From Escherichia coli (GTDB taxonomy: Bacteria; Pseudomonadota; Gammaproteobacteria; Enterobacterales; Enterobacteriaceae), in the NCBI RefSeq assembly GCF_003334385.1, contig NZ_QOWN01000024.1: a DNA stretch of 64,000 nt. The stretch is one strand, 5' to 3'. The notes below the pieces were generated by a model. It was not told the origin of the DNA and made no database searches. It was given only the letters and a program-made list of their open reading frames with translations. The translations under genes were made by a program, and so were the position numbers. How positions within the stretch are numbered: position 1 is the first letter of the stretch; each line of letters begins with the position of its first letter. Below, in pieces: positions 2,695-50,760 of this stretch.

Positions 2695-3321
2695 ATGAAA
2701 AAGATTTGGCTGGCGCTGGCTGGTTTAGTTTTAGCGTTTAGCGCATCGGCGGCGCAGTATGAAGATGGTAAACAGTACACTACCCTGGAAAAACCGGTAG
2801 CTGGCGCGCCGCAAGTGCTGGAGTTTTTCTCTTTCTTCTGCCCGCACTGCTATCAGTTTGAAGAAGTTCTGCATATTTCTGATAACGTGAAGAAAAAACT
2901 GCCGGAAGGCGTGAAGATGACTAAATACCACGTCAACTTCATGGGGGGGGACGTCGGCAAAGATCTGACTCAGGCATGGGCTGTGGCGATGGCGCTGGGC
3001 GTGGAAGACAAAGTCACTGTTCCGCTGTTTGAAGGCGTACAGAAAACCCAGACCATTCGTTCAGCATCTGATATCCGCGATGTATTTATCAACGCAGGTA
3101 TTAAAGGTGAAGAGTACGACGCGGCCTGGAACAGCTTCGTGGTCAAATCTCTGGTCGCTCAGCAGGAAAAAGCTGCAGCTGACGTGCAATTGCGTGGTGT
3201 TCCGGCGATGTTTGTTAACGGTAAATATCAGCTGAATCCGCAGGGTATGGATACCAGCAATATGGATGTTTTTGTTCAGCAGTATGCTAATACAGTGAAA
3301 TATCTGTCCGAGAAAAAATAA
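2695..3321 (+). CDS. dsbA: periplasmic thiol:disulfide oxidoreductase DsbA
   Basis: 208 aa ORF with signal peptide and CPHC active site (FFCPHCYQF). Confidence 0.95.
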
Positions 3322-6242: not shown

Positions 6243-9029
6243 ATGGTTCAGATCCCCCAAAATCCACTTATCCTTGTAGATGGTTCATCTTATCTTTATC
6301 GCGCATATCACGCGTTTCCTCCGCTGACTAACAGCGCAGGCGAGCCGACCGGTGCGATGTATGGTGTCCTCAACATGCTGCGCAGTCTGATCATGCAATA
6401 TAAACCGACGCATGCAGCGGTGGTCTTTGACGCCAAGGGAAAAACCTTTCGTGATGAACTGTTTGAACATTACAAATCACATCGCCCGCCAATGCCGGAC
6501 GATCTGCGTGCACAAATCGAACCCTTGCACGCGATGGTTAAAGCGATGGGACTGCCGCTGCTGGCGGTTTCTGGCGTAGAAGCGGACGACGTTATCGGTA
6601 CTCTGGCGCGCGAAGCCGAAAAAGCCGGGCGTCCGGTGCTGATCAGCACTGGCGATAAAGATATGGCGCAGCTGGTGACGCCAAATATTACGCTTATCAA
6701 TACCATGACGAATACCATCCTCGGACCGGAAGAGGTGGTGAATAAGTACGGCGTGCCGCCAGAACTGATCATCGATTTCCTGGCGCTGATGGGTGACTCC
6801 TCTGATAACATTCCTGGCGTACCGGGCGTCGGTGAAAAAACCGCGCAGGCATTGCTGCAAGGTCTTGGCGGGCTGGATACGCTGTATGCCGAGCCAGAAA
6901 AAATTGCTGGGTTGAGCTTCCGTGGCGCGAAAACAATGGCAGCGAAGCTCGAGCAAAACAAAGAAGTTGCTTATCTCTCATACCAGCTGGCGACGATTAA
7001 AACCGACGTTGAACTGGAGCTGACCTGTGAACAACTGGAAGTGCAGCAACCGGCAGCGGAAGAGTTGTTGGGGCTGTTCAAAAAGTATGAGTTCAAACGC
7101 TGGACTGCTGATGTCGAAGCGGGCAAATGGTTACAGGCCAAAGGGGCAAAACCCGCCGCGAAGCCACAGGAAACCAGTGTTGCAGACGAAGCACCAGAAG
7201 TGACGGCAACGGTGATTTCTTATGACAACTACGTCACCATCCTTGATGAAGAAACACTGAAAGCGTGGATTGCGAAGCTGGAAAAAGCGCCGGTATTTGC
7301 ATTTGATACCGAAACCGACAGCCTTGATAACATCTCTGCTAACCTGGTCGGGCTTTCTTTTGCTATCGAGCCAGGCGTAGCGGCATATATTCCGGTTGCT
7401 CATGATTATCTTGATGCGCCCGATCAAATCTCTCGCGAGCGTGCACTCGAGTTGCTAAAACCGCTGCTGGAAGATGAAAAGGCGCTGAAGGTCGGGCAAA
7501 ACCTGAAATACGATCGCGGTATTCTGGCGAATTACGGCATTGAGCTGCGTGGGATTGCGTTTGATACCATGCTGGAGTCCTACATTCTCAATAGCGTTGC
7601 CGGGCGTCACGATATGGACAGCCTCGCGGAACGTTGGTTGAAGCACAAAACCATCACTTTTGAAGAGATTGCGGGTAAAGGCAAAAATCAACTGACCTTT
7701 AACCAGATTGCCCTCGAAGAGGCCGGACGTTACGCCGCCGAAGATGCGGATGTCACCTTGCAGTTGCATCTGAAAATGTGGCCAGATCTGCAAAAACACA
7801 AAGGGCCGTTGAACGTCTTCGAGAATATCGAAATGCCGCTGGTGCCGGTGCTTTCACGCATTGAACGTAACGGTGTGAAGATCGATCCGAAAGTGCTGCA
7901 CAATCATTCTGAAGAGCTTACCTTGCGTCTGGCTGAGCTGGAAAAGAAAGCGCATGAAATTGCAGGTGAGGAATTTAACCTTTCTTCCACCAAGCAGTTA
8001 CAAACCATTCTATTTGAAAAACAGGGCATTAAACCGCTGAAGAAAACGCCGGGTGGCGCGCCGTCAACGTCGGAAGAGGTACTGGAAGAACTGGCGCTGG
8101 ACTATCCGTTGCCAAAAGTGATTCTGGAGTATCGTGGTCTGGCGAAGCTGAAATCGACCTACACCGACAAGCTGCCGCTGATGATCAACCCGAAAACCGG
8201 GCGTGTGCATACCTCTTATCACCAGGCAGTAACTGCAACGGGACGTTTATCGTCAACCGATCCTAACCTGCAAAACATTCCGGTACGTAACGAAGAAGGT
8301 CGCCGTATCCGCCAGGCGTTTATTGCGCCAGAGGATTATGTGATTGTCTCAGCGGACTACTCGCAGATTGAACTGCGCATTATGGCGCATCTCTCGCGTG
8401 ACAAAGGCTTGCTGACCGCATTCGCGGAAGGAAAAGATATCCACCGGGCAACGGCGGCAGAAGTGTTTGGTTTGCCACTGGAAACCGTCACCAGCGAGCA
8501 ACGCCGTAGCGCGAAAGCGATCAACTTTGGTCTGATTTATGGCATGAGTGCTTTCGGTCTGGCGCGGCAATTGAACATTCCACGTAAAGAAGCGCAGAAG
8601 TACATGGACCTTTACTTCGAACGCTACCCTGGCGTGCCGGAGTATATGGAACGCACCCGTGCTCAGGCGAAAGAGCAGGGCTACGTTGAAACGCTGGACG
8701 GACGCCGTCTGTATCTGCCGGATATCAAATCCAGCAATGGTGCTCGTCGTGCAGCGGCTGAACGTGCAGCCATTAACGCGCCAATGCAGGGAACCGCCGC
8801 CGACATTATCAAACGGGCGATGATTGCCGTTGATGCGTGGTTACAGGCTGAGCAACCGCGTGTACGTATGATCATGCAGGTACACGATGAACTGGTATTT
8901 GAAGTTCATAGAGATGATGTCGATGCCGTTGCGAAGCAGATTCATCAACTGATGGAAAACTGTACCCGTCTGGATGTGCCGTTGCTGGTGGAAGTGGGGA
9001 GTGGCGAAAACTGGGATCAGGCGCACTAA
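6243..9029 (+). CDS. polA: DNA polymerase I
   Basis: 928 aa ORF; 5'-3' exonuclease, 3'-5' exonuclease and polymerase domains (e.g. [23 protein letters not shown]). Confidence 0.97.
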
Positions 9030-9176
9030 GATTCGCCTGAACATGCCCTTTTTTCGTAAGTAAGCAACATAAGCTGTCACGTTTTGTGATGGCTATTAGA
9101 AATTCCTATGCAACAACTGAAAAAAAATTACAAAAAGTGCTTTCTGAACTGAACAAAAAAGAGTAAAGTTAGTCGC

Positions 9177-9285
9177 GTAGGGTACAGAGGTAAGATGTTC
9201 TATCTTTCAGACCTTTTACTTCACGTAATCGGATTTGGCTGAATATTTTAGCCGCCCCAGTCAGTAATGACTGGGGCGTTTTTTA
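9177..9285 (+). ncRNA. spf: Spot 42 small RNA
   Basis: Recognised sequence gtagggtacagaggtaagatgttctatc... ending in terminator hairpin ccccagtcagtaatgactgggg plus T-run; located between polA and engB. Confidence 0.9.
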
Positions 9286-9410
9286 TTGAGCGAAAGAAAA
9301 AATCCGCAATGCCTGATGCGCCATGTTTATCAGGCCAACGGTAGAATTGTAATCTATTGAATTTACGGGCCGGATACGCCACATCCGGCACAAGCATTAA
9401 GGCAAGAAAA

Positions 9411-10043
9411 TTATTCGCCGTCCTGCGTTTCTTCTACAGGCTGCATCTCGCTAAACCAGGTATCCAGTTTCTGCCGCAGCTTGTCCACGCCTTGTTTCTT
9501 CAACGAAGAAAACGTTTCAACCTGCACATCACCGTTAAACGCCAGTACAGCTTCACGCACCATATTCAATTGCGCTTTACGTGCGCCGCTTGCCAGTTTG
9601 TCCGCTTTGGTCAGCAACACCAGCACGGCGATATTGCTGTCTACCGCCCACTCAATCATCTGCTGATCCAAATCTTTCAGCGGATGGCGAATATCCATTA
9701 GCACCACCAGACCTTGCAGGCTCTGACGTTTTTCGAGGTACTCGCCGAGCGCGCGCTGCCATTTGCGCTTCATCTCTTCCGGGACTTCCGCATAACCGTA
9801 CCCAGGCAAGTCAACCAGACGCTTGCCGTCAGCCACTTCAAACAGGTTGATAAGCTGGGTGCGTCCAGGGGTTTTTGAGGTACGAGCCAGGCTTTTCTGG
9901 TTAGTCAGCGTGTTCAGCGCGCTGGATTTACCTGCGTTGGAACGGCCTGCAAAAGCCACTTCAATTCCGGTATCGGAAGGTAGGTGGCGAATATCAGGCG
10001 CACTCATCACAAAATGCGTCTGTTGATAATTCAAATTAGTCAA
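9411..10043 (-). CDS. engB: ribosome biogenesis GTPase EngB (YihA)
   Basis: 210 aa ORF with G1 motif GRSNAGKSS and G4 LLTKADK. Confidence 0.93.
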
Positions 10044-10313
10044 AGCGGTCGTCTCCGTCAGTCAAAGCTTTGTGGCGATTATACCTGAACCATAATAAAA
10101 GGCGGATTTTTCGGCGTGAGCGTTGTAAGTAAAAGCCATACGCTTTGTGAGACATTGCCGATAGTCTTTATGCGAAATAGCAGAGAAAATTCTGCGATGC
10201 ATGTCAAATAAGCTATATAAATCAGTGAATTGCTTTTATATAAAACTCTGAAAATGTGCAAATACTGATGGCGGTTGATTGTTTGTTTAAAGCAAAGGCG
10301 TAAAGTAACACCC

Positions 10314-10556
10314 ATAGAGCGAGGACGCTAACAGGAACAATGACTCAGGATGAGGGTCAGGAGCGCCAGGAGGCGAAGACAGAGGATTGTCAGGAAGACA
10401 AACGTCCGGAGACGTAATTAAACGGAAATGGAATCAACACGGATTGTTCCGGCTAATGGAAAAACAGGGTGTGTTGGCGGCCTGCAAGGATTGTAAGACC
10501 CGTTAAGGGTTATGAGTCAGGAAAAAAGGCGACAGAGTAATCTGTCGCCTTTTTTC
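10314..10556 (+). ncRNA. csrC: CsrC small RNA (CsrA-sequestering)
   Basis: About 245 nt non-coding stretch rich in GGA-containing motifs (aggacg, caggaa, caggat, caggag, ccagga, ggagac), ending in hairpin ggcgacagagtaatctgtcgcc plus T-run; sits between engB and yihI. Confidence 0.85.
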
Positions 10557-10624
10557 TTTGCTTGCTTTCTGTTAGATTCCGCCGCAAATCTATACTGAAT
10601 AAAACGGCTAAAAGACGAACCATT

Positions 10625-11131
10625 ATGAAACCATCTTCACCATCACGCAGCAAAGGTCATGCAAAAGCGCGTCGCAAAACGCGCGAAGAGCTGAATCAGG
10701 AAGCTCGTGACCGCAAGCGTCAGAAAAAACGTCGTGGTCATGCGCCGGGCAGCCGCGCAGCGGGCGGTAACACCACGTCAGGCAGCAAAGGCCAGAACGT
10801 ACCAAAAGATCCACGTATTGGCAGTAAAACCCCTATTCCATTGGGCGTGACTGAAAAAGTCACCAAACAGCACAAACCGAAGAGTGAGAAACCTATGCTT
10901 TCACCGCAGGCGGAGTTGGAGTTACTGGAAACGGATGAGCGTCTGGATGCGCTGCTGGAACGTCTGGAAGCAGGCGAAACCCTGAGTGCCGAAGAGCAAT
11001 CCTGGGTGGATGCTAAACTGGATCGTATTGATGAGTTGATGCAGAAACTCGGCCTCTCTTATGACGATGACGAAGAAGAGGAAGAAGACGAGAAGCAAGA
11101 AGACATGATGCGTCTGCTGCGGGGCAACTAA
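10625..11131 (+). CDS. yihI: Der GTPase-activating protein YihI
   Basis: 169 aa from Met [11 protein letters not shown]; basic N-terminus and acidic [11 protein letters not shown]-terminus. Confidence 0.88.
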
Positions 11132-11319
11132 CGGATTGCCGCCGTGGGCCTTCCCGTTCTGCTGATAACCCTTCCGGTTATATGTTATCTGGTGTGGTTA
11201 TTCGTTAAACTACAGCGGTTGTCGCGGCGACAAAAGTGGCTGCGCAACCGGCTGATGACCCGAAACGGGCATCCGCCGGTACGCCGTAGCCGCCAGAGAC
11301 GCCATCGGAAGGAGTGAGC

Positions 11320-12693
11320 ATGTCTGTACAGCAAATCGACTGGGATCTGGCCCTGATCCAGAAATATAACTATTCCGGGCCACGATACACCTCGTACCCG
11401 ACCGCGCTGGAGTTTTCAGAAGACTTCGGCGAACAGGCGTTTTTACAAGCCGTGGCGCGCTATCCTGAGCGTCCATTATCTCTCTACGTACATATCCCGT
11501 TCTGCCATAAGCTTTGTTACTTCTGCGGTTGCAATAAGATTGTTACTCGCCAGCAGCACAAGGCCGATCAGTATCTGGACGCGCTGGAGCAAGAAATCGT
11601 CCATCGTGCACCGCTGTTCGCCGGGCGTCACGTCAGCCAATTGCACTGGGGCGGCGGAACGCCGACGTATCTGAATAAAGCGCAAATCAGCCGCCTGATG
11701 AAGCTGCTGCGCGAAAACTTCCAGTTCAATGCCGATGCGGAGATTTCGATCGAAGTCGATCCGCGGGAAATCGAACTGGATGTACTCGATCATTTACGCG
11801 CCGAAGGCTTTAATCGCCTGAGCATGGGCGTGCAGGACTTCAACAAAGAAGTGCAACGTCTGGTTAACCGCGAGCAGGATGAAGAGTTCATCTTTGCACT
11901 GCTTAACCATGCGCGTGAGATTGGTTTTACCTCCACCAACATCGACCTGATTTACGGCCTGCCGAAACAGACGCCGGAGAGTTTCGCCTTTACCCTGAAA
12001 CGTGTGGCGGAGCTGAACCCCGATCGTCTGAGTGTCTTTAACTACGCGCATCTGCCGACCATTTTTGCTGCTCAGCGCAAAATCAAAGATGCTGACCTGC
12101 CGAGTCCGCAGCAAAAACTCGATATCCTGCAGGAAACCATCGCCTTCCTGACGCAATCGGGCTATCAGTTTATCGGTATGGATCACTTTGCCCGTCCGGA
12201 TGACGAGCTGGCGGTGGCCCAGCGTGAAGGCGTGCTGCATCGTAACTTCCAGGGCTACACCACTCAGGGCGATACCGATCTGCTGGGGATGGGCGTTTCC
12301 GCCATCAGCATGATTGGCGACTGCTACGCGCAGAACCAGAAAGAGTTGAAGCAGTACTATCAGCAAGTGGATGAACAAGGCAATGCGCTGTGGCGTGGTA
12401 TTGCGCTAACGCGTGATGACTGTATTCGCCGCGATGTGATTAAGTCGCTCATCTGCAACTTCCGTCTGGATTACGCCCCTATTGAGAAACAGTGGGATTT
12501 GCACTTCGCTGATTACTTTGCGGAAGATCTCAAGCTGCTCGCCCCGTTAGCAAAAGATGGGCTGGTGGATGTGGATGAGAAGGGAATACAGGTGACGGCG
12601 AAAGGTCGCTTGCTGATCCGCAACATTTGCATGTGCTTTGATACCTATCTGCGCCAGAAAGCGCGGATGCAGCAGTTCTCTCGGGTGATTTAA
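11320..12693 (+). CDS. hemN: oxygen-independent coproporphyrinogen III oxidase HemN (radical SAM)
   Basis: 457 aa; radical-SAM cysteine motif CHKLCYFCGC. Confidence 0.95.
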   Translation: MSVQQIDWDLALIQKYNYSGPRYTSYPTALEFSEDFGEQAFLQAVARYPERPLSLYVHIPFCHKLCYFCGCNKIVTRQQHKADQYLDALEQEIVHRAPLFAGRHVSQLHWGGGTPTYLNKAQISRLMKLLRENFQFNADAEISIEVDPREIELDVLDHLRAEGFNRLSMGVQDFNKEVQRLVNREQDEEFIFALLNHAREIGFTSTNIDLIYGLPKQTPESFAFTLKRVAELNPDRLSVFNYAHLPTIFAAQRKIKDADLPSPQQKLDILQETIAFLTQSGYQFIGMDHFARPDDELAVAQREGVLHRNFQGYTTQGDTDLLGMGVSAISMIGDCYAQNQKELKQYYQQVDEQGNALWRGIALTRDDCIRRDVIKSLICNFRLDYAPIEKQWDLHFADYFAEDLKLLAPLAKDGLVDVDEKGIQVTAKGRLLIRNICMCFDTYLRQKARMQQFSRVI

Positions 12694-12805: not shown

Positions 12806-12888
12806 TAGGCCGGATAAGGCGTTTACGCCGCATCAGGCATCTGAGCATGATGCCTGATGCGGCGCTGGTCGCGTCTTATCAGGCCTAC
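12806..12888. repeat. REP/BIME palindromic element
   Basis: gccggataaggcgtttacgccgcatcaggc ... gcgtcttatcaggcctac inverted REP pair. Confidence 0.85.
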
Positions 12889-17482: not shown

Positions 17483-17537
17483 GCACCAATATAGTGCTTC
17501 AATGGAAACATTAAGCACCATGTTGGTGCAATGACCT
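17483..17537 (-). promoter_or_regulatory. NtrC enhancer binding sites upstream of glnA
   Basis: Two dyad elements on the minus strand: tgcaccaacatggtgct and gcactatattggtgcaac (TGCACC-N5-GGTGCA type). Confidence 0.75.
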
Positions 17538-17681
17538 TTGGATAACCCTTTTTATGCTCCGTGAAAGCGATCACAAAGGGACTCTGCAATACTTGTTTGC
17601 GGAGGATGTTTGTGATCCTGTTTTGTAGTGCGATTAATCCGTGTACAATAACGCGCTATTTCTAATGCCTGAGGCAAAGTT

Positions 17682-19505
17682 GTGATCGAAAAATTGCGTA
17701 ATATCGCCATCATCGCGCACGTAGACCATGGTAAAACTACCCTGGTAGACAAGCTGCTCCAACAATCCGGTACGTTCGACTCTCGTGCCGAAACCCAAGA
17801 GCGCGTGATGGACTCCAACGATTTGGAGAAAGAGCGTGGGATTACCATCCTCGCGAAAAACACCGCTATCAAATGGAATGATTACCGTATCAACATCGTT
17901 GATACCCCGGGGCACGCCGACTTCGGTGGTGAAGTTGAACGTGTAATGTCCATGGTAGACTCAGTGCTGCTGGTGGTTGACGCATTTGACGGCCCGATGC
18001 CGCAAACGCGCTTCGTAACCAAAAAAGCGTTTGCTTACGGCCTGAAGCCGATTGTTGTTATCAACAAAGTTGACCGCCCTGGCGCGCGTCCTGATTGGGT
18101 TGTGGATCAGGTATTCGATCTGTTCGTTAACCTCGACGCGACCGACGAGCAGCTGGACTTCCCGATCGTTTACGCTTCTGCGCTGAACGGTATCGCGGGT
18201 CTGGACCACGAAGATATGGCGGAAGACATGACCCCGCTGTACCAGGCGATTGTTGACCACGTTCCTGCGCCGGACGTTGACCTTGACGGTCCGTTCCAGA
18301 TGCAGATTTCTCAGCTCGATTACAACAGCTATGTTGGCGTTATCGGCATTGGCCGCATCAAGCGCGGTAAAGTGAAGCCGAACCAGCAGGTCACTATCAT
18401 CGATAGCGAAGGCAAAACCCGCAACGCGAAAGTCGGTAAAGTGCTGGGCCACCTCGGTCTGGAACGTATCGAAACCGACCTGGCGGAAGCTGGCGATATC
18501 GTGGCGATCACGGGCCTGGGCGAACTGAACATTTCTGACACCGTTTGCGACACGCAAAACGTTGAAGCGCTGCCGGCACTCTCCGTTGATGAGCCGACCG
18601 TTTCTATGTTCTTCTGCGTTAACACCTCGCCGTTCTGCGGTAAAGAAGGTAAGTTCGTAACGTCTCGTCAGATCCTGGATCGTCTGAACAAAGAACTGGT
18701 ACACAACGTTGCGCTGCGCGTAGAAGAAACCGAAGACGCCGATGCGTTCCGCGTTTCTGGTCGTGGCGAACTGCACCTGTCTGTTCTGATCGAAAACATG
18801 CGTCGTGAAGGTTTCGAACTGGCGGTATCCCGTCCGAAAGTAATCTTCCGTGAAATCGACGGTCGTAAACAAGAGCCGTATGAAAACGTGACGCTGGACG
18901 TTGAAGAACAGCATCAGGGTTCTGTGATGCAGGCGCTGGGCGAACGTAAAGGCGACCTGAAAAACATGAATCCAGACGGTAAAGGCCGCGTACGTCTCGA
19001 CTACGTGATCCCAAGCCGTGGTCTGATTGGCTTCCGTTCTGAGTTCATGACCATGACTTCCGGTACTGGTCTGCTGTACTCCACCTTCAGCCACTACGAC
19101 GACGTACGTCCGGGTGAAGTGGGCCAGCGTCAGAACGGCGTACTGATCTCTAACGGTCAGGGTAAAGCGGTCGCGTTCGCGCTGTTCGGTCTGCAGGATC
19201 GCGGTAAGCTGTTCCTCGGTCACGGTGCAGAAGTTTACGAAGGTCAGATTATCGGTATTCATAGCCGCTCTAACGACCTGACGGTAAACTGCCTGACCGG
19301 TAAGAAACTGACCAACATGCGTGCTTCCGGTACTGACGAAGCCGTTGTTCTGGTTCCGCCTATCCGCATGACTCTGGAACAAGCTCTGGAGTTCATCGAT
19401 GATGACGAACTGGTAGAAGTGACTCCAACCTCTATCCGTATTCGTAAACGTCACCTGACGGAAAACGATCGTCGTCGCGCTAACCGCGCACCGAAAGACG
19501 ATTAA
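17682..19505 (+). CDS. typA: ribosome-dependent translational GTPase TypA/BipA
   Basis: 607 aa, GTG start; G-domain motifs [21 protein letters not shown]. Confidence 0.95.
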
Positions 19506-19526
19506 TTTCGTTTTTTAGTTATAAAA

Positions 19527-19555
19527 AACCTGCCATCGCTGGCAGGTTTTTTTTT
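19527..19555 (+). terminator. rho-independent terminator after typA
   Basis: Hairpin cctgccatcgctggcagg followed by a T-run. Confidence 0.8.
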
Positions 19556-19721
19556 ACCTGTCGTGAGCGCACACCAATGCGAGTATCTCCCTTATAAGTC
19601 TGTGATTACGTCAATAGAGAGCTTTGTCACAATTATCTGCAAAGTCATACACCGTTAATTGCTTTCTTTTTTGGCGTAAGCGTAAGATGCTTCATCTGGT
19701 TTAAACCAAAAGGATTAAACA

Positions 19722-42818: not shown

Positions 42819-45800
42819 TTACACCTTTTCCACATTCACAAGGAAGGACTTAAACTCCGGCGTCTGCGTGTTCGCATCACCAACGAATGGCGTTAAAGTA
42901 TTGGCAATAAAGCCTTTTTTAGCTACGCCTTCATAGCCCCAGTGAATCGGAATACCGATGGTATCGATATCTTTGCCGTTCGCTTTCAGCGTGCGAATAC
43001 GTTTGGTCACCACCGCTTTGGCTTTGATATAGCCACGGTTGGAGGAGACTTTCACGGTATCGCCCTGGGCAATGCCAAGTTTATTCGCCAGCGACTCCCC
43101 GATTTCCACAAACTGCTCTGGCTGCAAAATCGCGTTCAACAGCGCGTGTTTGGTCCAGTAGTGGAAGTGCTCGGTCAGACGATAGGTGGTTCCGACATAC
43201 GGGAACTTATCGGCTTTACCCAATGCTTCGGCGTCGTCTTTAAAGATACGTGCAGCCGGGTTCGAGATAACGTTTGGATGCAGCGGGTTAGTTCCCAGCG
43301 GCGTTTCAAACGGCTCGTAGTGTTCCGGGAACGGACCTTCCGCCATCTTATCGAGGGCAAACAGACGCCCCATGCCTTCCTGCTGCATGATAAACGGCCC
43401 GACGCCGCTACCCGGAGGCGCTGCGCTGTAGTCCGGAATATCCCAGCCGGTCCACTTAGTGCCGTCCCATTTCAGCAACTGACGCTTCGGATCCCACGGG
43501 TTACCCTGCGGATCTGCGGAGGCGCGGTTATACAGAATGCGGCGGTTAAGCGGCCATGCCCATGCCCAGCCCAGCGTGTTACCGAGGCCAGACGGATCGG
43601 CGTTATCACGGCGTGCCATCTGGTTGCCTTCCGGCGTCCAGCTACCGGCGAAAATCCAGCAGCCACAGGAGGTTGTACCGTCATCGCGCAATTGGGCGAA
43701 CGAACTAAGTTGTTGGCCTTTCTTGACGATAACCGCACCGGTTGCCGGATCGGTAATATCGGCCAGCGCCTTACCGTTGCTCTCCATCGCCACTTCTTCT
43801 GAAGATGGCTCATGCGGAATGGCGTAGTTCCATGTCATGTTCAGCACCTGGTCCGGGTTCGCGCCACCCCGTTCGGCATACATCTTGCGCAAGCGCAGGA
43901 AGATACCGGAGAGGATCTCGCCGTCAGTCAGCGCAATCCCCGGGGCGTCCGCACCTTTCCAGTGCCACTGTAACCAGCGACCTGAGTTAACGATAGAACC
44001 GTTCTCTTCCGCGAAGCAGGTCGATGGCAGACGGAACACTTCGGTCTGGATCTTCGACGAGTCAACTTCGTTCAGCTCACCGTGGTTCTGCCAGAAGTTA
44101 GAGGTTTCAGTGTTCAGTGGGTCGATGGTGACGAGGAACTTCAGTTTCGACAGACAACCGATCACTTTGTTTTTGTTCGGGAATGAGGCAACAGGGTTAA
44201 AGCCCTGGCAGATATAGCCATTGACCTTGCCCTCTTTCATCATCTCGAAGTATTGCAGGACGTCGTAGCCTTTATCCCACTTCGGCAACCAGTCAAAGCC
44301 CCAGCTATTTTCCGCCGTCGCTTTATCACCAAAGAAGGCCTTCATCATAGAGACGAAGAATTTCGGGTAGTTGCCCCAGTAGTTTACCTGGCCTTCCAGC
44401 AGCGGTTTTGGCGTGTTGGCGGTAAGGTAGGTTTGCAGATCGGTCTGCTTCTCGCTTGGCAGCGTCATGTAACCTGGCAGGCTCTGCGACAGCAGCCCCA
44501 GGTCCGTCAGCCCCTGAATATTGGAGTGACCGCGCAGGGCGTTAACGCCGCCGCCTGCCATCCCCATATTGCCGAGCAGCAGCTGGATCATCGCCATCGT
44601 ACGAATGTTTTGCGCACCAACGGAGTGTTGCGTCCAGCCGAGGGCATACAGGAACGAGGCAGTTTTATCGTGAGCACTGGTTTCTGCGATGTATTCGCAG
44701 ACTTTCAGGAACGCGTCTTTTGGCGTACCACAGATGTTTTCAACCACATCTGGCGTGTAGCGGGAAACGTGCTGTTTCAGCAAGTTCCACACGCAGCGCG
44801 GATGTTGCAGCGTGGTATCGCGTTTGGCGAAGCCGTTTTCGTCCAGTTCATAAGTCCAGGAGGATTTATCGTACTTGCGTTTTTCCGCGTCGTAGCCGGT
44901 GAACAGGCCATCTTCAAAGCCGTAATCCTCACGCACGATCAGGCTGGCGTTGGTATAGGCTTCGGTGTATTCGCGGTTGAATTTTTCATTGTTCAGCAGG
45001 TACAGCAATACGCCTGACAGGAAAGCAATGTCAGTACCGGAACGAATAGGGGCATAGTAGTCAGCTACCGCCGCCGTACGCGTAAAGCGAGGATCGATCA
45101 CAATCAGTTTCGCGCCGTTGTGAATTTTGGCTTCCATCGCCCAGCGGAACCCGACCGGGTGAGCTTCAGCGGCGTTACCGCCCATCACCACGACGAGGTT
45201 GGCGTTCTTGATGTCGACCCAGTGGTTGGTCATCGCACCGCGACCAAATGTTGGAGCAAGACTTGCTACCGTTGGTCCGTGTCAGACACGCGCCTGGTTG
45301 TCGACCGCGAGCATACCCAGCGCGCGGGAGAATTTTTGCGTTAAATAGCCGGTTTCGTTACTCGACGCGGAAGCACACAGCATCCCGGTGGAGAGCCAGC
45401 GGTTAACAGTCACGCCTTCGGCGTTTTGCGCAATGTAGTTAGCATCGCGGTCTTCTTTCATCAGTTTGGCGATGCGATCAAACGCCTCTTCCCAACTGAT
45501 TTGCTGCCATTTATCAGAACCTGGCGCACGGTATTCCGGAAACTTCAGACGGCTTTCGGAGTGGATGAAATCCACCAGGCCAGCGCCTTTCGGACAAAGT
45601 GCACCGCGGTTGACCGGGTGATCCGGATCGCCTTCGATATGGAAGATAGATGCTTTGGCGTTTTTTGCTCCGTCACCGAGGCTGTACATCAACAGCCCAC
45701 AGCCTACGGAACAATAGGTGCAGGTATTACGGGTTTCGCGGGTGCGCAGCAGTTTATACTGCCGGGTTTCCGCGAGTGCTACGCTGGGTGCAAAACCCAG

Positions 45801-45869
45801 TGCCGCTGCCGTGGTGCCTGCCATACCGCCAGCGCAGATCTTAAAGAACTGCCTTCTGCTGACCTGCAT
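42819..45869 (-). CDS. fdoG: formate dehydrogenase-O major subunit (selenoprotein, in-frame UGA = Sec at 45282-45284)
   Basis: Two ORF-track pieces (195 aa and 804 aa) in the same frame separated by a single TGA; Tat signal RRQFFK at the N-terminus; molybdopterin oxidoreductase motifs; total 1016 codons. Confidence 0.92.
45235..45281 (-). promoter_or_regulatory. SECIS stem-loop directing selenocysteine insertion in fdoG
   Basis: Sequence immediately 3' of the UGA (cacggaccaacggtagcaagtcttgctccaacatttggtcg) resembles the fdhF SECIS arrangement. Confidence 0.6.
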
Positions 45870-46062
45870 GGATTGCTCCTTGTTTCGACATTGTCACGTC
45901 CCATTTACATTCGCTTGCTGCGTGTGCAGGGAGTGGGAGTTATTTTTCTTTGCGGAAGGGGCCGCAAAGGTCCAGAATTGGCTCAATTTCCCTCCATCCA
46001 GGAAGGGTTTGTAACAGAATACCATAATGTTGGTGTGTGTGTTCTTATCTGGTTAAGAGAAA

Positions 46063-46896
46063 GTGAAAAAAACACAGCGAAAAGAAATCGAAAATGTGAC
46101 AAATATCACAGGTGTTCGTCAAATTGAGTTATGGCGGCGTGATGATTTACAACACCCACGGTTAGATGAGGTCGCGGAAGAAGTTCCCGTTGCGCTGGTC
46201 TACAACGGCATTTCGCATGTGGTGATGATGGCGTCGCCCAAAGACCTTGAGTACTTTGCGCTCGGTTTTTCGCTTTCCGAGGGGATTATCGAAAGTCCGC
46301 GCGATATCTTCGGCATGGATGTCGTTCCTTCCTGTAATGGTCTTGAAGTACAAATTGAGCTTTCCAGCCGCCGCTTTATGGGGTTGAAGGAGCGCCGCCG
46401 GGCGCTGGCGGGACGTACGGGCTGTGGCGTATGCGGCGTGGAGCAACTTAATGACATCGGAAAACCGGTGCAGCCGCTACCGTTCACCCAGACGTTTGAT
46501 CTCAACAAACTGGATGATGCATTACGTCATCTCAACGATTTTCAGCCAGTGGGGCAACTGACTGGTTGTACTCACGCCGCTGCCTGGATGTTGCCATCTG
46601 GCGAACTGGTCGGCGGGCATGAAGACGTGGGTCGCCATGTGGCGCTGGACAAACTGTTAGGCCGCCGGTCACAAGAAGGGGAAAGCTGGCAGCAAGGTGC
46701 GGTACTGGTTTCCAGTCGTGCCAGTTATGAAATGGTGCAAAAGTCGGCGATGTGCGGCGTAGAGATTTTGTTTGCGGTGTCTGCCGCGACCACGCTTGCT
46801 GTAGAAGTGGCTGAGCGCTGTAATCTGACACTGGTAGGTTTTTGTAAACCGGGTCGGGCAACGGTTTATACCCATCCGCAGCGTTTGAGCAATTAA
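46063..46896 (+). CDS. fdhD: formate dehydrogenase sulfurtransferase FdhD
   Basis: 277 aa. Confidence 0.92.
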
Positions 46897-47048: not shown

Positions 47049-48104
47049 ATGAAAAGGAATTTATTATCTTCCGCTATTATAGTCGCCATCATGTCCCTCG
47101 GTCTGACGGGTTGTGATGATAAAAAAGCCGAAACAGAAACGCTCCCGCCTGCCAATAGTCAACCTGCCGCACCAGCTCCTGAAGCGAAACCTACTGAAGC
47201 TCCCGTTGCAAAAGCAGAAGCTAAACCTGAAACACCTGCGCAACCGGTGGTCGATGAACAAGCGGTTTTCGACGAAAAAATGGATGTCTATATCAAGTGC
47301 TACAACAAGTTACAGATCCCGGTACAGCGCAGTCTGGCGCGTTATGCTGACTGGCTGAAAGATTTTAAACAGGGGCCTACCGGTGAAGAGCGTACTGTTT
47401 ATGGCATCTACGGCATTAGTGAATCCAACCTCGCTGAGTGTGAAAAAGGCGTAAAAAGTGCTGTGGCGTTAACGCCTGCGCTGCAACCAATTGATGGCGT
47501 GGCGGTGAGTTATATCGATGCTGCCGTGGCGTTGGGTAATACCATTAACGAAATGGATAAATATTACACCCAGGAAAATTATAAAGACGATGCGTTTGCG
47601 AAAGGGAAAACGCTGCACCAGACATTCTTAAAAAATCTGGAAGCCTTTGAACCTGTAGCCGAATCTTATCATGCGGCGATTCAGGAAATTAATGATAAGC
47701 GTCAGCTTGCGGAACTGAAAAATATTGAAGAAAGAGAAGGGAAAACATTCCACTACTACTCTCTGGCAGTCATGATTTCAGCGAAACAAATTAATAACCT
47801 GATATCGCAAGATAAGTTTGATGCAGAAGCGGCAATGAAGAAAGTGTCTGAACTGGAAACGCTGGTGGCGCAGGCCAAAGAAGCGGATAAAGGCGGCATG
47901 AATTTCTCGTTTATTAATTCGGCAGGCCAGTATCAACTCGAGGCTAAAAAATACGTTCGCCGCATCAGAGATAAAGTCCCGTACTCTGACTGGGATAAAG
48001 AGCAACTTCAGGACGCAAACTCAAGCTGGATGGTCGAAGACTCTTTCCCGAGAGCATTACGCGAGTACAACGAAATGGTTGATGACTATAATAGCCTGCG
48101 TTAA
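47049..48104 (+). CDS. yiiG: lipoprotein YiiG (DUF3829)
   Basis: 351 aa; lipobox LTGC after the signal peptide. Confidence 0.88.
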   Translation: MKRNLLSSAIIVAIMSLGLTGCDDKKAETETLPPANSQPAAPAPEAKPTEAPVAKAEAKPETPAQPVVDEQAVFDEKMDVYIKCYNKLQIPVQRSLARYADWLKDFKQGPTGEERTVYGIYGISESNLAECEKGVKSAVALTPALQPIDGVAVSYIDAAVALGNTINEMDKYYTQENYKDDAFAKGKTLHQTFLKNLEAFEPVAESYHAAIQEINDKRQLAELKNIEEREGKTFHYYSLAVMISAKQINNLISQDKFDAEAAMKKVSELETLVAQAKEADKGGMNFSFINSAGQYQLEAKKYVRRIRDKVPYSDWDKEQLQDANSSWMVEDSFPRALREYNEMVDDYNSLR

Positions 48105-50524: not shown

Positions 50525-50760
50525 GGATGCACGACCCGTAGGCCGGATAAGGCGCTCGCGCCGCATCCGGCAATCAATGCCTGATGCGACGCTGTCGCGT
50601 CTTATCAGGCCTACAACTATTGCCGACCTGTAGGCCGGATAAGGCACTTGTGCCGCATCCGGCAATCAATGCCTGATGCGACGCTGTCGCGTCTTATCAG
50701 GCCTACAACTGTTGCCGACCCGTAGGCCGGATAAGGCGCTCGCGCCGCATCCGGCAGTGT
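50525..50760. repeat. tandem BIME/REP array (about 2.5 copies of a ~95 bp unit) between rhaD and rhaA
   Basis: Repeated unit gtaggccggataaggc...gccgcatccggcaatcaatgcctgatgcgacgctgtcgcgtcttatcaggcctacaact. Confidence 0.9.

Follow-up and report, generated by a model that had tools for sequence, protein, structure and literature searches.

A stop codon lying inside the gene for the alpha subunit of formate dehydrogenase-O raises the question of whether it is read as selenocysteine or breaks the gene. In the 64-kb stretch of Escherichia coli DNA analysed here (the window), an earlier note had described one TGA (45282-45284, minus strand) within a 1016-codon fdoG frame, and translation confirmed it: the frame running from 45869 to 42819 on the minus strand has 1017 codons including the terminal TAA, and the TGA at codon 196 is its sole internal stop. 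Naive ORF calling had been said to split the gene there and to begin the large piece at an internal Met at 45233; the mechanical ORF list shows exactly that split, into 195 amino acids (45282-45869) and 804 amino acids (42819-45233, with an ATG at 45233). The in-frame TGA of fdoG is a real feature. What follows concerns how it is read.

The fdoG frame and its locus

The family profile joins the two pieces. TIGR01553, the NCBIfam equivalog for the formate dehydrogenase-N subunit alpha, is matched over positions 1-194 by the 195-residue piece (271.4 bits) and over positions 196-1009 by the 804-residue piece, which alone scores 1278.3 bits against a cut-off of 814.2. Since the two pieces take up positions 1-194 and 196-1009, a single profile position is left for the UGA. 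Codon 196 is flanked by NQARV-U-HGPTVASLAPTFGR. The 16 codons that lead from the UGA to Met213 (HGPTVASLAPTFGRGA) keep the frame and are conserved; they match TIGR01553 from position 196 on and the FdnG chain unbroken. By a naive estimate, the chance of 820 open codons in phase past the UGA is (61/64)^820, or about 1e-17.

A 131-residue segment, with a cysteine placeholder at the UGA, aligns without gaps to the FdnG chain 1kqf_A (PDB 1KQF), and the placeholder falls on residue 196 of that chain, a non-standard residue shown as X; Sec196 of FdnG is seen in this crystal structure. The placeholder is likewise matched to the equivalent residue in several chains titled 'selenocysteine-containing' formate dehydrogenases, Desulfovibrio included. 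The product of fdoG belongs to this family, scoring above the TIGR01553 cut-off and having the UGA at the Mo-ligand position equivalent to Sec196 of FdnG. In E. coli, each of the three formate dehydrogenases ligates its Mo cofactor through a selenocysteine (PMC6239281), and FDH-O carries a catalytic selenocysteine (PMC8124441). The proposal that the UGA is a selenocysteine recoding site is upheld by its alignment with Sec196 of FdnG in 1KQF and by the SECIS_3 element that follows it. A sense codon at this site in a reference gene, named beforehand as grounds for rejecting the proposal, was not seen: K-12 fdoG, fdnG and fdhF all have TGA.

The gene itself is fdoG. It matches K-12 fdoG (b3894) at 3049 of 3051 nucleotides, the 2 differences giving one amino acid change (R667 here, Q in K-12), and it lies in the same gene context, fdhD/fdoGHI/fdhE/yiiG/frvR; the note's naming of the gene stands on this match and on the shared locus. 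The features specific to fdoG are all present, namely orthology, a divergent fdhD upstream, fdoH-fdoI-fdhE downstream and a gamma subunit of the FDH-O type. The neighbours and the gamma-subunit score (Table 1) identify the locus as fdo, not fdn. RefSeq/PGAP names the gene at this locus 'fdnG', a label that results from a generic naming model. RefSeq also flags the neighbouring yiiG as a pseudogene; fdoG is not flagged. The N-terminal segment MQVSRRQFFK...SVALA, with its SRRQFFK motif, we take to be a Tat signal from general knowledge of FdnG and FdoG. In the 5' UTR of fdoG, the Rfam model FdoG1_thermometer has a sub-threshold match (36.4 against 50 bits).

Neither the gene nor the site is peculiar to this strain. 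Sequences 100% identical to this fdoG occur in many RefSeq E. coli chromosomes, all 5426 complete E. coli genomes have the gene, and 5420 records show at least 99% identity over the 141 nucleotides around the UGA. In the records inspected, RefSeq annotates a single intact CDS across the TGA. As for the selenium machinery, neither a tRNA gene nor sel genes were found in the 64-kb window. Of 5426 complete E. coli genomes, 5425 carry selC, which encodes tRNA-Sec.

Table 1. Features of the fdoG region, with their coordinates in the window
Feature	Coordinates	Strand	Basis or remarks
fdoG CDS (formate dehydrogenase-O alpha subunit)	42819..45869	minus	1016 codons + TAA, through UGA196; translation, TIGR01553, K-12 match
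UGA codon 196, very probably recoded as selenocysteine (Mo ligand)	45282..45284	minus	sequence and FdnG 1kqf_A alignment
Internal Met213 codon, start of the naive 804-aa ORF	45231..45233	minus	ORF list; motif GRGAMTNHW
SECIS element (Rfam SECIS_3, RF01989)	45229..45287	minus	full-length match, model positions 1-59
Paired part of the SECIS hairpin (lower stem and apical stem-loop)	45239..45281	minus	Rfam consensus structure, model columns 7-49
Apical minihelix, putative SelB-binding part	45253..45270	minus	bulged U17 at 45268; loop G23 at 45262, U24 at 45261
Frozen synonymous block, codons -1 to +21 from the UGA	45219..45287	minus	codon entropy, Enterobacterales-like homologues
N-terminal twin-arginine (Tat) signal peptide (presumed), MQVSRRQFFK...SVALA	45771..45869	minus	read from translation
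fdhD (sulfurtransferase for Mo cofactor)	46063..46896	plus, divergent from fdoG	TIGR00129, 340 bits; annotation
fdoH (beta, Fe-S subunit)	41904..42806	minus	TIGR01582, 478.7 bits; RefSeq annotation in identical genome
fdoI (cytochrome b556 subunit)	41272..41907	minus	NF007924 (FDH-O-specific), 453.3 bits vs 243.6 on FDH-N gamma model
fdhE (accessory protein)	40346..41275	minus	NF002925, 604.5 bits

The SECIS element and its relation to fdnG and fdhF

The segment at 45229-45287 matches the SECIS_3 covariance model with 84.3 bits (gathering score 63, E=1.1e-19) and is the only match to the Rfam SECIS covariance models in the 64-kb window. The UGA falls on model positions 4-6, immediately 5' of the hairpin, and stands in frame as codon 196. 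Counting the U of the UGA as 1, fdoG, fdnG and fdhF all have U at position 17, G at 23 and U at 24, and none of these three nucleotides varies across the 78 distinct homologous 72-nt sequences among the matches listed. Conserved positions described for the SECIS are the bulged U17 and the apical-loop G23 and U24, with U17 and G23 as the SelB contacts, on a 17-nt apical stem-loop placed 11 nt from the UGA (PMC8659212).

The hairpin had been likened to the fdhF SECIS, and this comparison holds in part. The fdhF element, with its UGA at codon 140, is the experimentally defined prototype and belongs to SECIS_2; fdoG shares with it the UGA-CAC-GG start, 22 of the first 26 nucleotides, the distance to U17, G23 and U24, and presumably the SelB-dependent mechanism (PMC8659212). 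Family membership is where the likeness ends: the fdoG element scores only 28.1 bits on SECIS_2 (RF01988, the fdhF type), below the threshold of 70, whereas K-12 fdhF scores 87.1 bits on that model and K-12 fdnG and fdoG score 84.3 bits each on SECIS_3. The architecture differs as well. The apical stem of fdoG has one extra nucleotide on its 3' side, giving 5 bp and a GUC loop as compared with 4 bp and a GGUC loop in fdhF, and both the lower stem and the encoded peptide of fdhF are unlike those of fdoG. Judged from its sequence, the fdoG element is a SECIS of the fdnG/fdoG type, predicted to work like the fdhF SECIS while standing outside that Rfam family.

The alignment to the fdnG and fdhF elements that the earlier note had proposed as a check thus gives 22 of the first 26 nucleotides for fdhF and complete identity (59/59) for fdnG (b1474), where the UGA is likewise codon 196. 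The paralogues otherwise differ considerably, with 77% amino acid and 74.9% nucleotide identity and lengths of 1015 (fdnG) and 1016 (fdoG) residues, and the fdnG locus, yddG-fdnGHI, is without the adjacent fdhD or fdhE of the fdo locus. In K-12 fdoG, the UGA position, the 59-nt SECIS, the operon and the neighbours are all the same; the two strains share one and the same element.

Folding, the other check proposed, gave a divided answer. The minimum free energy fold of the 48 nt after the UGA contains the same apical hairpin as the Rfam structure, so the structure was reproduced, but the energy is indistinguishable from that of shuffled sequences: the 66-nt segment folds with -19.3 kcal/mol (z=-0.60), and 48 of 200 shuffles reach a fold as stable or more so. 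Given this z-score, folding energy alone lends the SECIS no support, and the evidence comes from the covariance model and from the comparisons between sequences. A short hairpin that would include the UGA (CGUGU-CUG-ACACG) was considered and rejected: it is not conserved, and CGC in fdnG breaks one of its pairs.

Conservation across species and a frozen synonymous block

Homologous sites were collected with the pattern TGH-CAY-GGN-CCN-ACN-GTN-GCN-WSN-YTN-GC in one genome per species, which gave at least 121 matches in at least 120 stretches. The matches listed include Enterobacterales, Pasteurellaceae, Pseudomonas, Burkholderiales, Rhizobiales, Acidobacteriota, a Nitrospirae MAG and an Actinomycetota MAG. 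The TGH of the pattern admits TGA, TGC and TGT but demands a Ser-type codon in the loop, which puts Cys homologues bearing Ala there out of its reach. The equivalent of codon 196 is TGA in all 121 loci among the matches listed, a count that is conditional on the required Ser codon and to that extent biased. That Ser codon, which supplies the loop G23 and U24, is AGU in every sequence among the matches listed.

Over 63 distinct 59-mers among the matches listed, the Rfam structure is paired in 89.5% of cells, a share that drops to 26-48% once the 3' partners are slid. Pairing reaches 98.2% of cells in the apical helix and, less consistently, 82.7% in the lower stem. Two column pairs change in a compensatory way and are never unpaired in the 63 sequences listed, namely columns 21/33 (GC in 38, AU in 20, GU in 5) and columns 24/30 (AU in 31, CG in 26, GC in 6). 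The covariation score of 0.201 compares with 0.103 for shuffles, none of which (0/500) reach it, and with 0.03-0.08 when the partners are slid. The covarying columns are third codon positions, pairing Val GUN with Ala GCN and Ala GCN with Leu YUN; since they are synonymous, and are N in the pattern or lie outside it, neither the protein sequence nor the retrieval can account for the covariation. RNAalifold recovers the same helices de novo from 66-118 distinct homologous sequences, depending on flank length, among the matches listed. The SECIS structure is conserved through compensatory changes.

A natural contrast is offered by some E. coli plasmids, which bear an IS-flanked fdnGHI-like operon (25 plasmid places). 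One such gene, on pN96-1, belongs to the same enzyme family and the same type of operon (alpha, beta, gamma) and shares 44 of 59 nucleotides with fdoG over the SECIS-equivalent segment. Where fdoG has TGA it has TGT (Cys); the loop Ser AGU has become Ala GCU, with loss of G23; and 5 of the 7 apical pairs remain. Its segment still scores 44.7 bits on SECIS_3, below the threshold, which means that shared coding sequence makes up roughly half of the Rfam score. The remaining score, which lifts fdoG over the threshold, goes with the UGA in this contrast with a single plasmid gene.

Synonymous sites around the UGA are also held fixed between the paralogues. The longest perfectly identical run between fdoG and fdnG, 71 nt at 45217-45287, lies directly on the SECIS, at a background in which only 58% of codons for the same amino acid are identical between the two genes; over the prespecified degenerate codons, about 19 in number, the chance of such a run is 0.58^19, or about 3e-5. 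In the 43 Enterobacterales-like loci among the matches listed, codon entropy is close to 0 inside a block that extends from codon -1 to codon +21 and rises to 1-2 bits on both sides. This block coincides with the 71-nt run, and in these loci it continues for about 20 nt beyond the point at which the paired region ends on its 3' side. In the Pseudomonas-like group among the matches listed, the freeze stops at codon +14, where the hairpin ends, and in the Rhizobiales- and Burkholderiales-like groups listed synonymous sites vary even within the hairpin. No pairing partner was found for codons +15 to +21, which RNAalifold leaves unpaired and which vary in the broader set. A 3' extension of the recoding signal specific to this lineage, contacting the ribosome or SelB or setting pausing, can be imagined, though we consider it rather unlikely; the freeze past the hairpin may instead reflect a plain codon preference at a few Gly, Ala, Thr, Asn and His codons.

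Reading of UGA196

Taken together, we consider UGA196 and the element behind it to be the site at which E. coli fdoG, the gene for the catalytic subunit of formate dehydrogenase-O, is recoded for selenocysteine in the standard way, with a probability of about 97%. SelB binding, selenocysteine insertion, Mo ligation and Tat export are steps that we infer from established knowledge. As a ribosome nears UGA196, the downstream mRNA would fold into the SECIS hairpin, whose apical minihelix, with its bulged U17 and loop G23 and U24, 11 nt after the UGA, would be bound by SelB carrying Sec-tRNA(Sec), the product of selC. As the complex SelB·GTP·Sec-tRNA(Sec), SelB would then bring the tRNA to the A site, competing with release factor 2. 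Once selenocysteine is inserted, translation could run on for 820 codons, and the hairpin would be unwound and translated as HGPTVASLAPTFGRG. In the enzyme, Sec196 would serve as the protein ligand of the molybdenum bis-MGD cofactor, and the folded protein would presumably be exported via the Tat pathway.

Other readings of the same codon can be proposed. It is very improbable that the TGA is a nonsense mutation or a sequencing error and fdoG a pseudogene in this strain: although a mechanical ORF finder does split the gene at the TGA, the same codon stands in K-12 fdoG, in fdnG, in fdhF (codon 140) and in all 121 of the other-species loci listed. The conservation within E. coli speaks against this reading as well (141 nt at least 99% identical in 5420 records, the gene in 5426 of 5426 genomes), as do the 820 open codons downstream with their family profile of 1278 bits and the lack of a RefSeq pseudogene flag on fdoG, whereas neighbouring yiiG has one. 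A pair of genes, one for a 195-residue N-terminal protein ending at the UGA and one for an 804-residue protein starting at Met213, is suggested by the appearance of both as ORFs. We regard this as extremely unlikely, as the 16 codons from the UGA to Met213 are in frame and conserved, the profile and the FdnG chain run through them unbroken, and such an arrangement would cut a single-chain enzyme between its Fe-S/Tat-signal domain and its Mo-binding domains.

The UGA could also be read mainly by near-cognate tRNAs (Trp or Cys), with the hairpin as a pause site and not a SelB-dependent SECIS. UGA-C is a leaky stop context and is present in all loci among the matches listed, and the hairpin is not exceptionally stable; both would fit such a reading. 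It is nevertheless highly unlikely. The invariant G23, U24 and U17 in the exact register of the fdhF element are specific to SelB recognition (PMC8659212), and in the solved homologues selenocysteine stands at the aligned position. Furthermore, the Cys homologue uses TGT and is without the loop G, and tRNA-Sec is essentially universal in E. coli. All three of these alternatives are contradicted by the conservation data together with the continuous profile and structure alignment; nothing in the evidence contradicts selenocysteine recoding.

The fdoG recoding site is already known: it is textbook material, has a curated Rfam family and carries an annotation in those RefSeq records that were inspected. 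What is mildly non-obvious is that the element is of the fdnG type, that its folding energy is uninformative and that the synonymous freeze in Enterobacterales runs past the hairpin. The value of the locus is practical. The site is one at which gene callers typically go wrong, a naive finder giving fragments of 195 and 804 residues, and it can be used as a positive control for spotting recoding signals from raw sequence. Finally, with Sec196 as the Mo ligand of FDH-O, correct annotation of this codon is needed in order to predict the dependence of FDH-O on selenium and on selABCD.

Identity of the formate dehydrogenase gene and its allele

The gene at 42819-45869 (-) is labelled 'fdnG: formate dehydrogenase-N subunit alpha' by PGAP in RefSeq E. 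coli genomes, and its neighbours carry their correct names there, fdoH and fdoI. From synteny and near-identity to K-12 b3894, we conclude that it is fdoG, the gene for the alpha subunit of formate dehydrogenase-O. It differs from the K-12 gene at 2 of 3051 nt, and the two proteins at a single residue, R667 in the window and Q in K-12 (codon 667, 43870 region). This allele is common to many other E. coli strains (100% identity). In one strain with an identical fdoG, 203740, yiiG is a pseudogene with an internal stop according to RefSeq; in the window it is an intact ORF.

Constraint around the UGA codon and RNA features of the window

Codons -1 to +21 around the selenocysteine UGA, at 45219-45287 (-), form a block in which synonymous choice is frozen across 43 Enterobacterales-like loci; this block overshoots the 3' end of the SECIS recoding hairpin by about 20 nt. 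A pairing partner was sought for this 3' extension and none was found. The freeze stops at codon +14 in the Pseudomonas-like group; the Rhizobiales- and Burkholderiales-like groups show synonymous variation, hairpin included. Upstream, a candidate match to the Rfam FdoG1_thermometer family (RF02778) scores 36.4 bits (E=1.7e-6), short of the gathering score of 50, and aligns best near the Shine-Dalgarno sequence and start codon of fdoG. The other Rfam matches in the window that exceed the gathering score are Spot 42, CsrC, ES222, STnc370 and four copies of naRNA4; no tRNA genes were found within the 64 kb.

Coordinates of RNA features and protein-coding genes
Feature	Position	Strand	Remarks
FdoG1_thermometer, candidate	45840-46076	-	fdoG 5' UTR and first codons
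Spot 42	9167-9285	+	Rfam, above gathering score
CsrC	10314-10567	+	Rfam, above gathering score
ES222	17493-17600	+	Rfam, above gathering score
STnc370	19490-19558	+	Rfam, above gathering score
naRNA4, four copies	12808-12885, 50541-50611, 50633-50703	+	Rfam, above gathering score
	59548-59625	-	
yiiG	47049-48104	+	intact ORF, 351 aa
fdnGHI-like operon with Cys alpha subunit, locus	8449-11499		plasmid pN96-1, NZ_JBXULY010000002.1

selC and a plasmid-borne operon

The tRNA-Sec gene selC is present in 5425 of the 5426 complete E. coli genomes, and one plasmid in the collection bears a copy; for the single genome without a selC match, the prediction would be that none of the three formate dehydrogenases is active.

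A third fdnGHI-like operon, with IS66/IS21 on its flanks, occurs on some E. coli plasmids, and a search of E. coli genomes placed it at about 25 plasmid locations. Its alpha subunit has TGT (Cys) where fdoG has selenocysteine, and its SECIS has decayed (44.7 bits), with the apical-loop nucleotide G23 (counted from the U of UGA as 1) gone. This operon would be a selenium-independent formate dehydrogenase carried by a conjugative plasmid.
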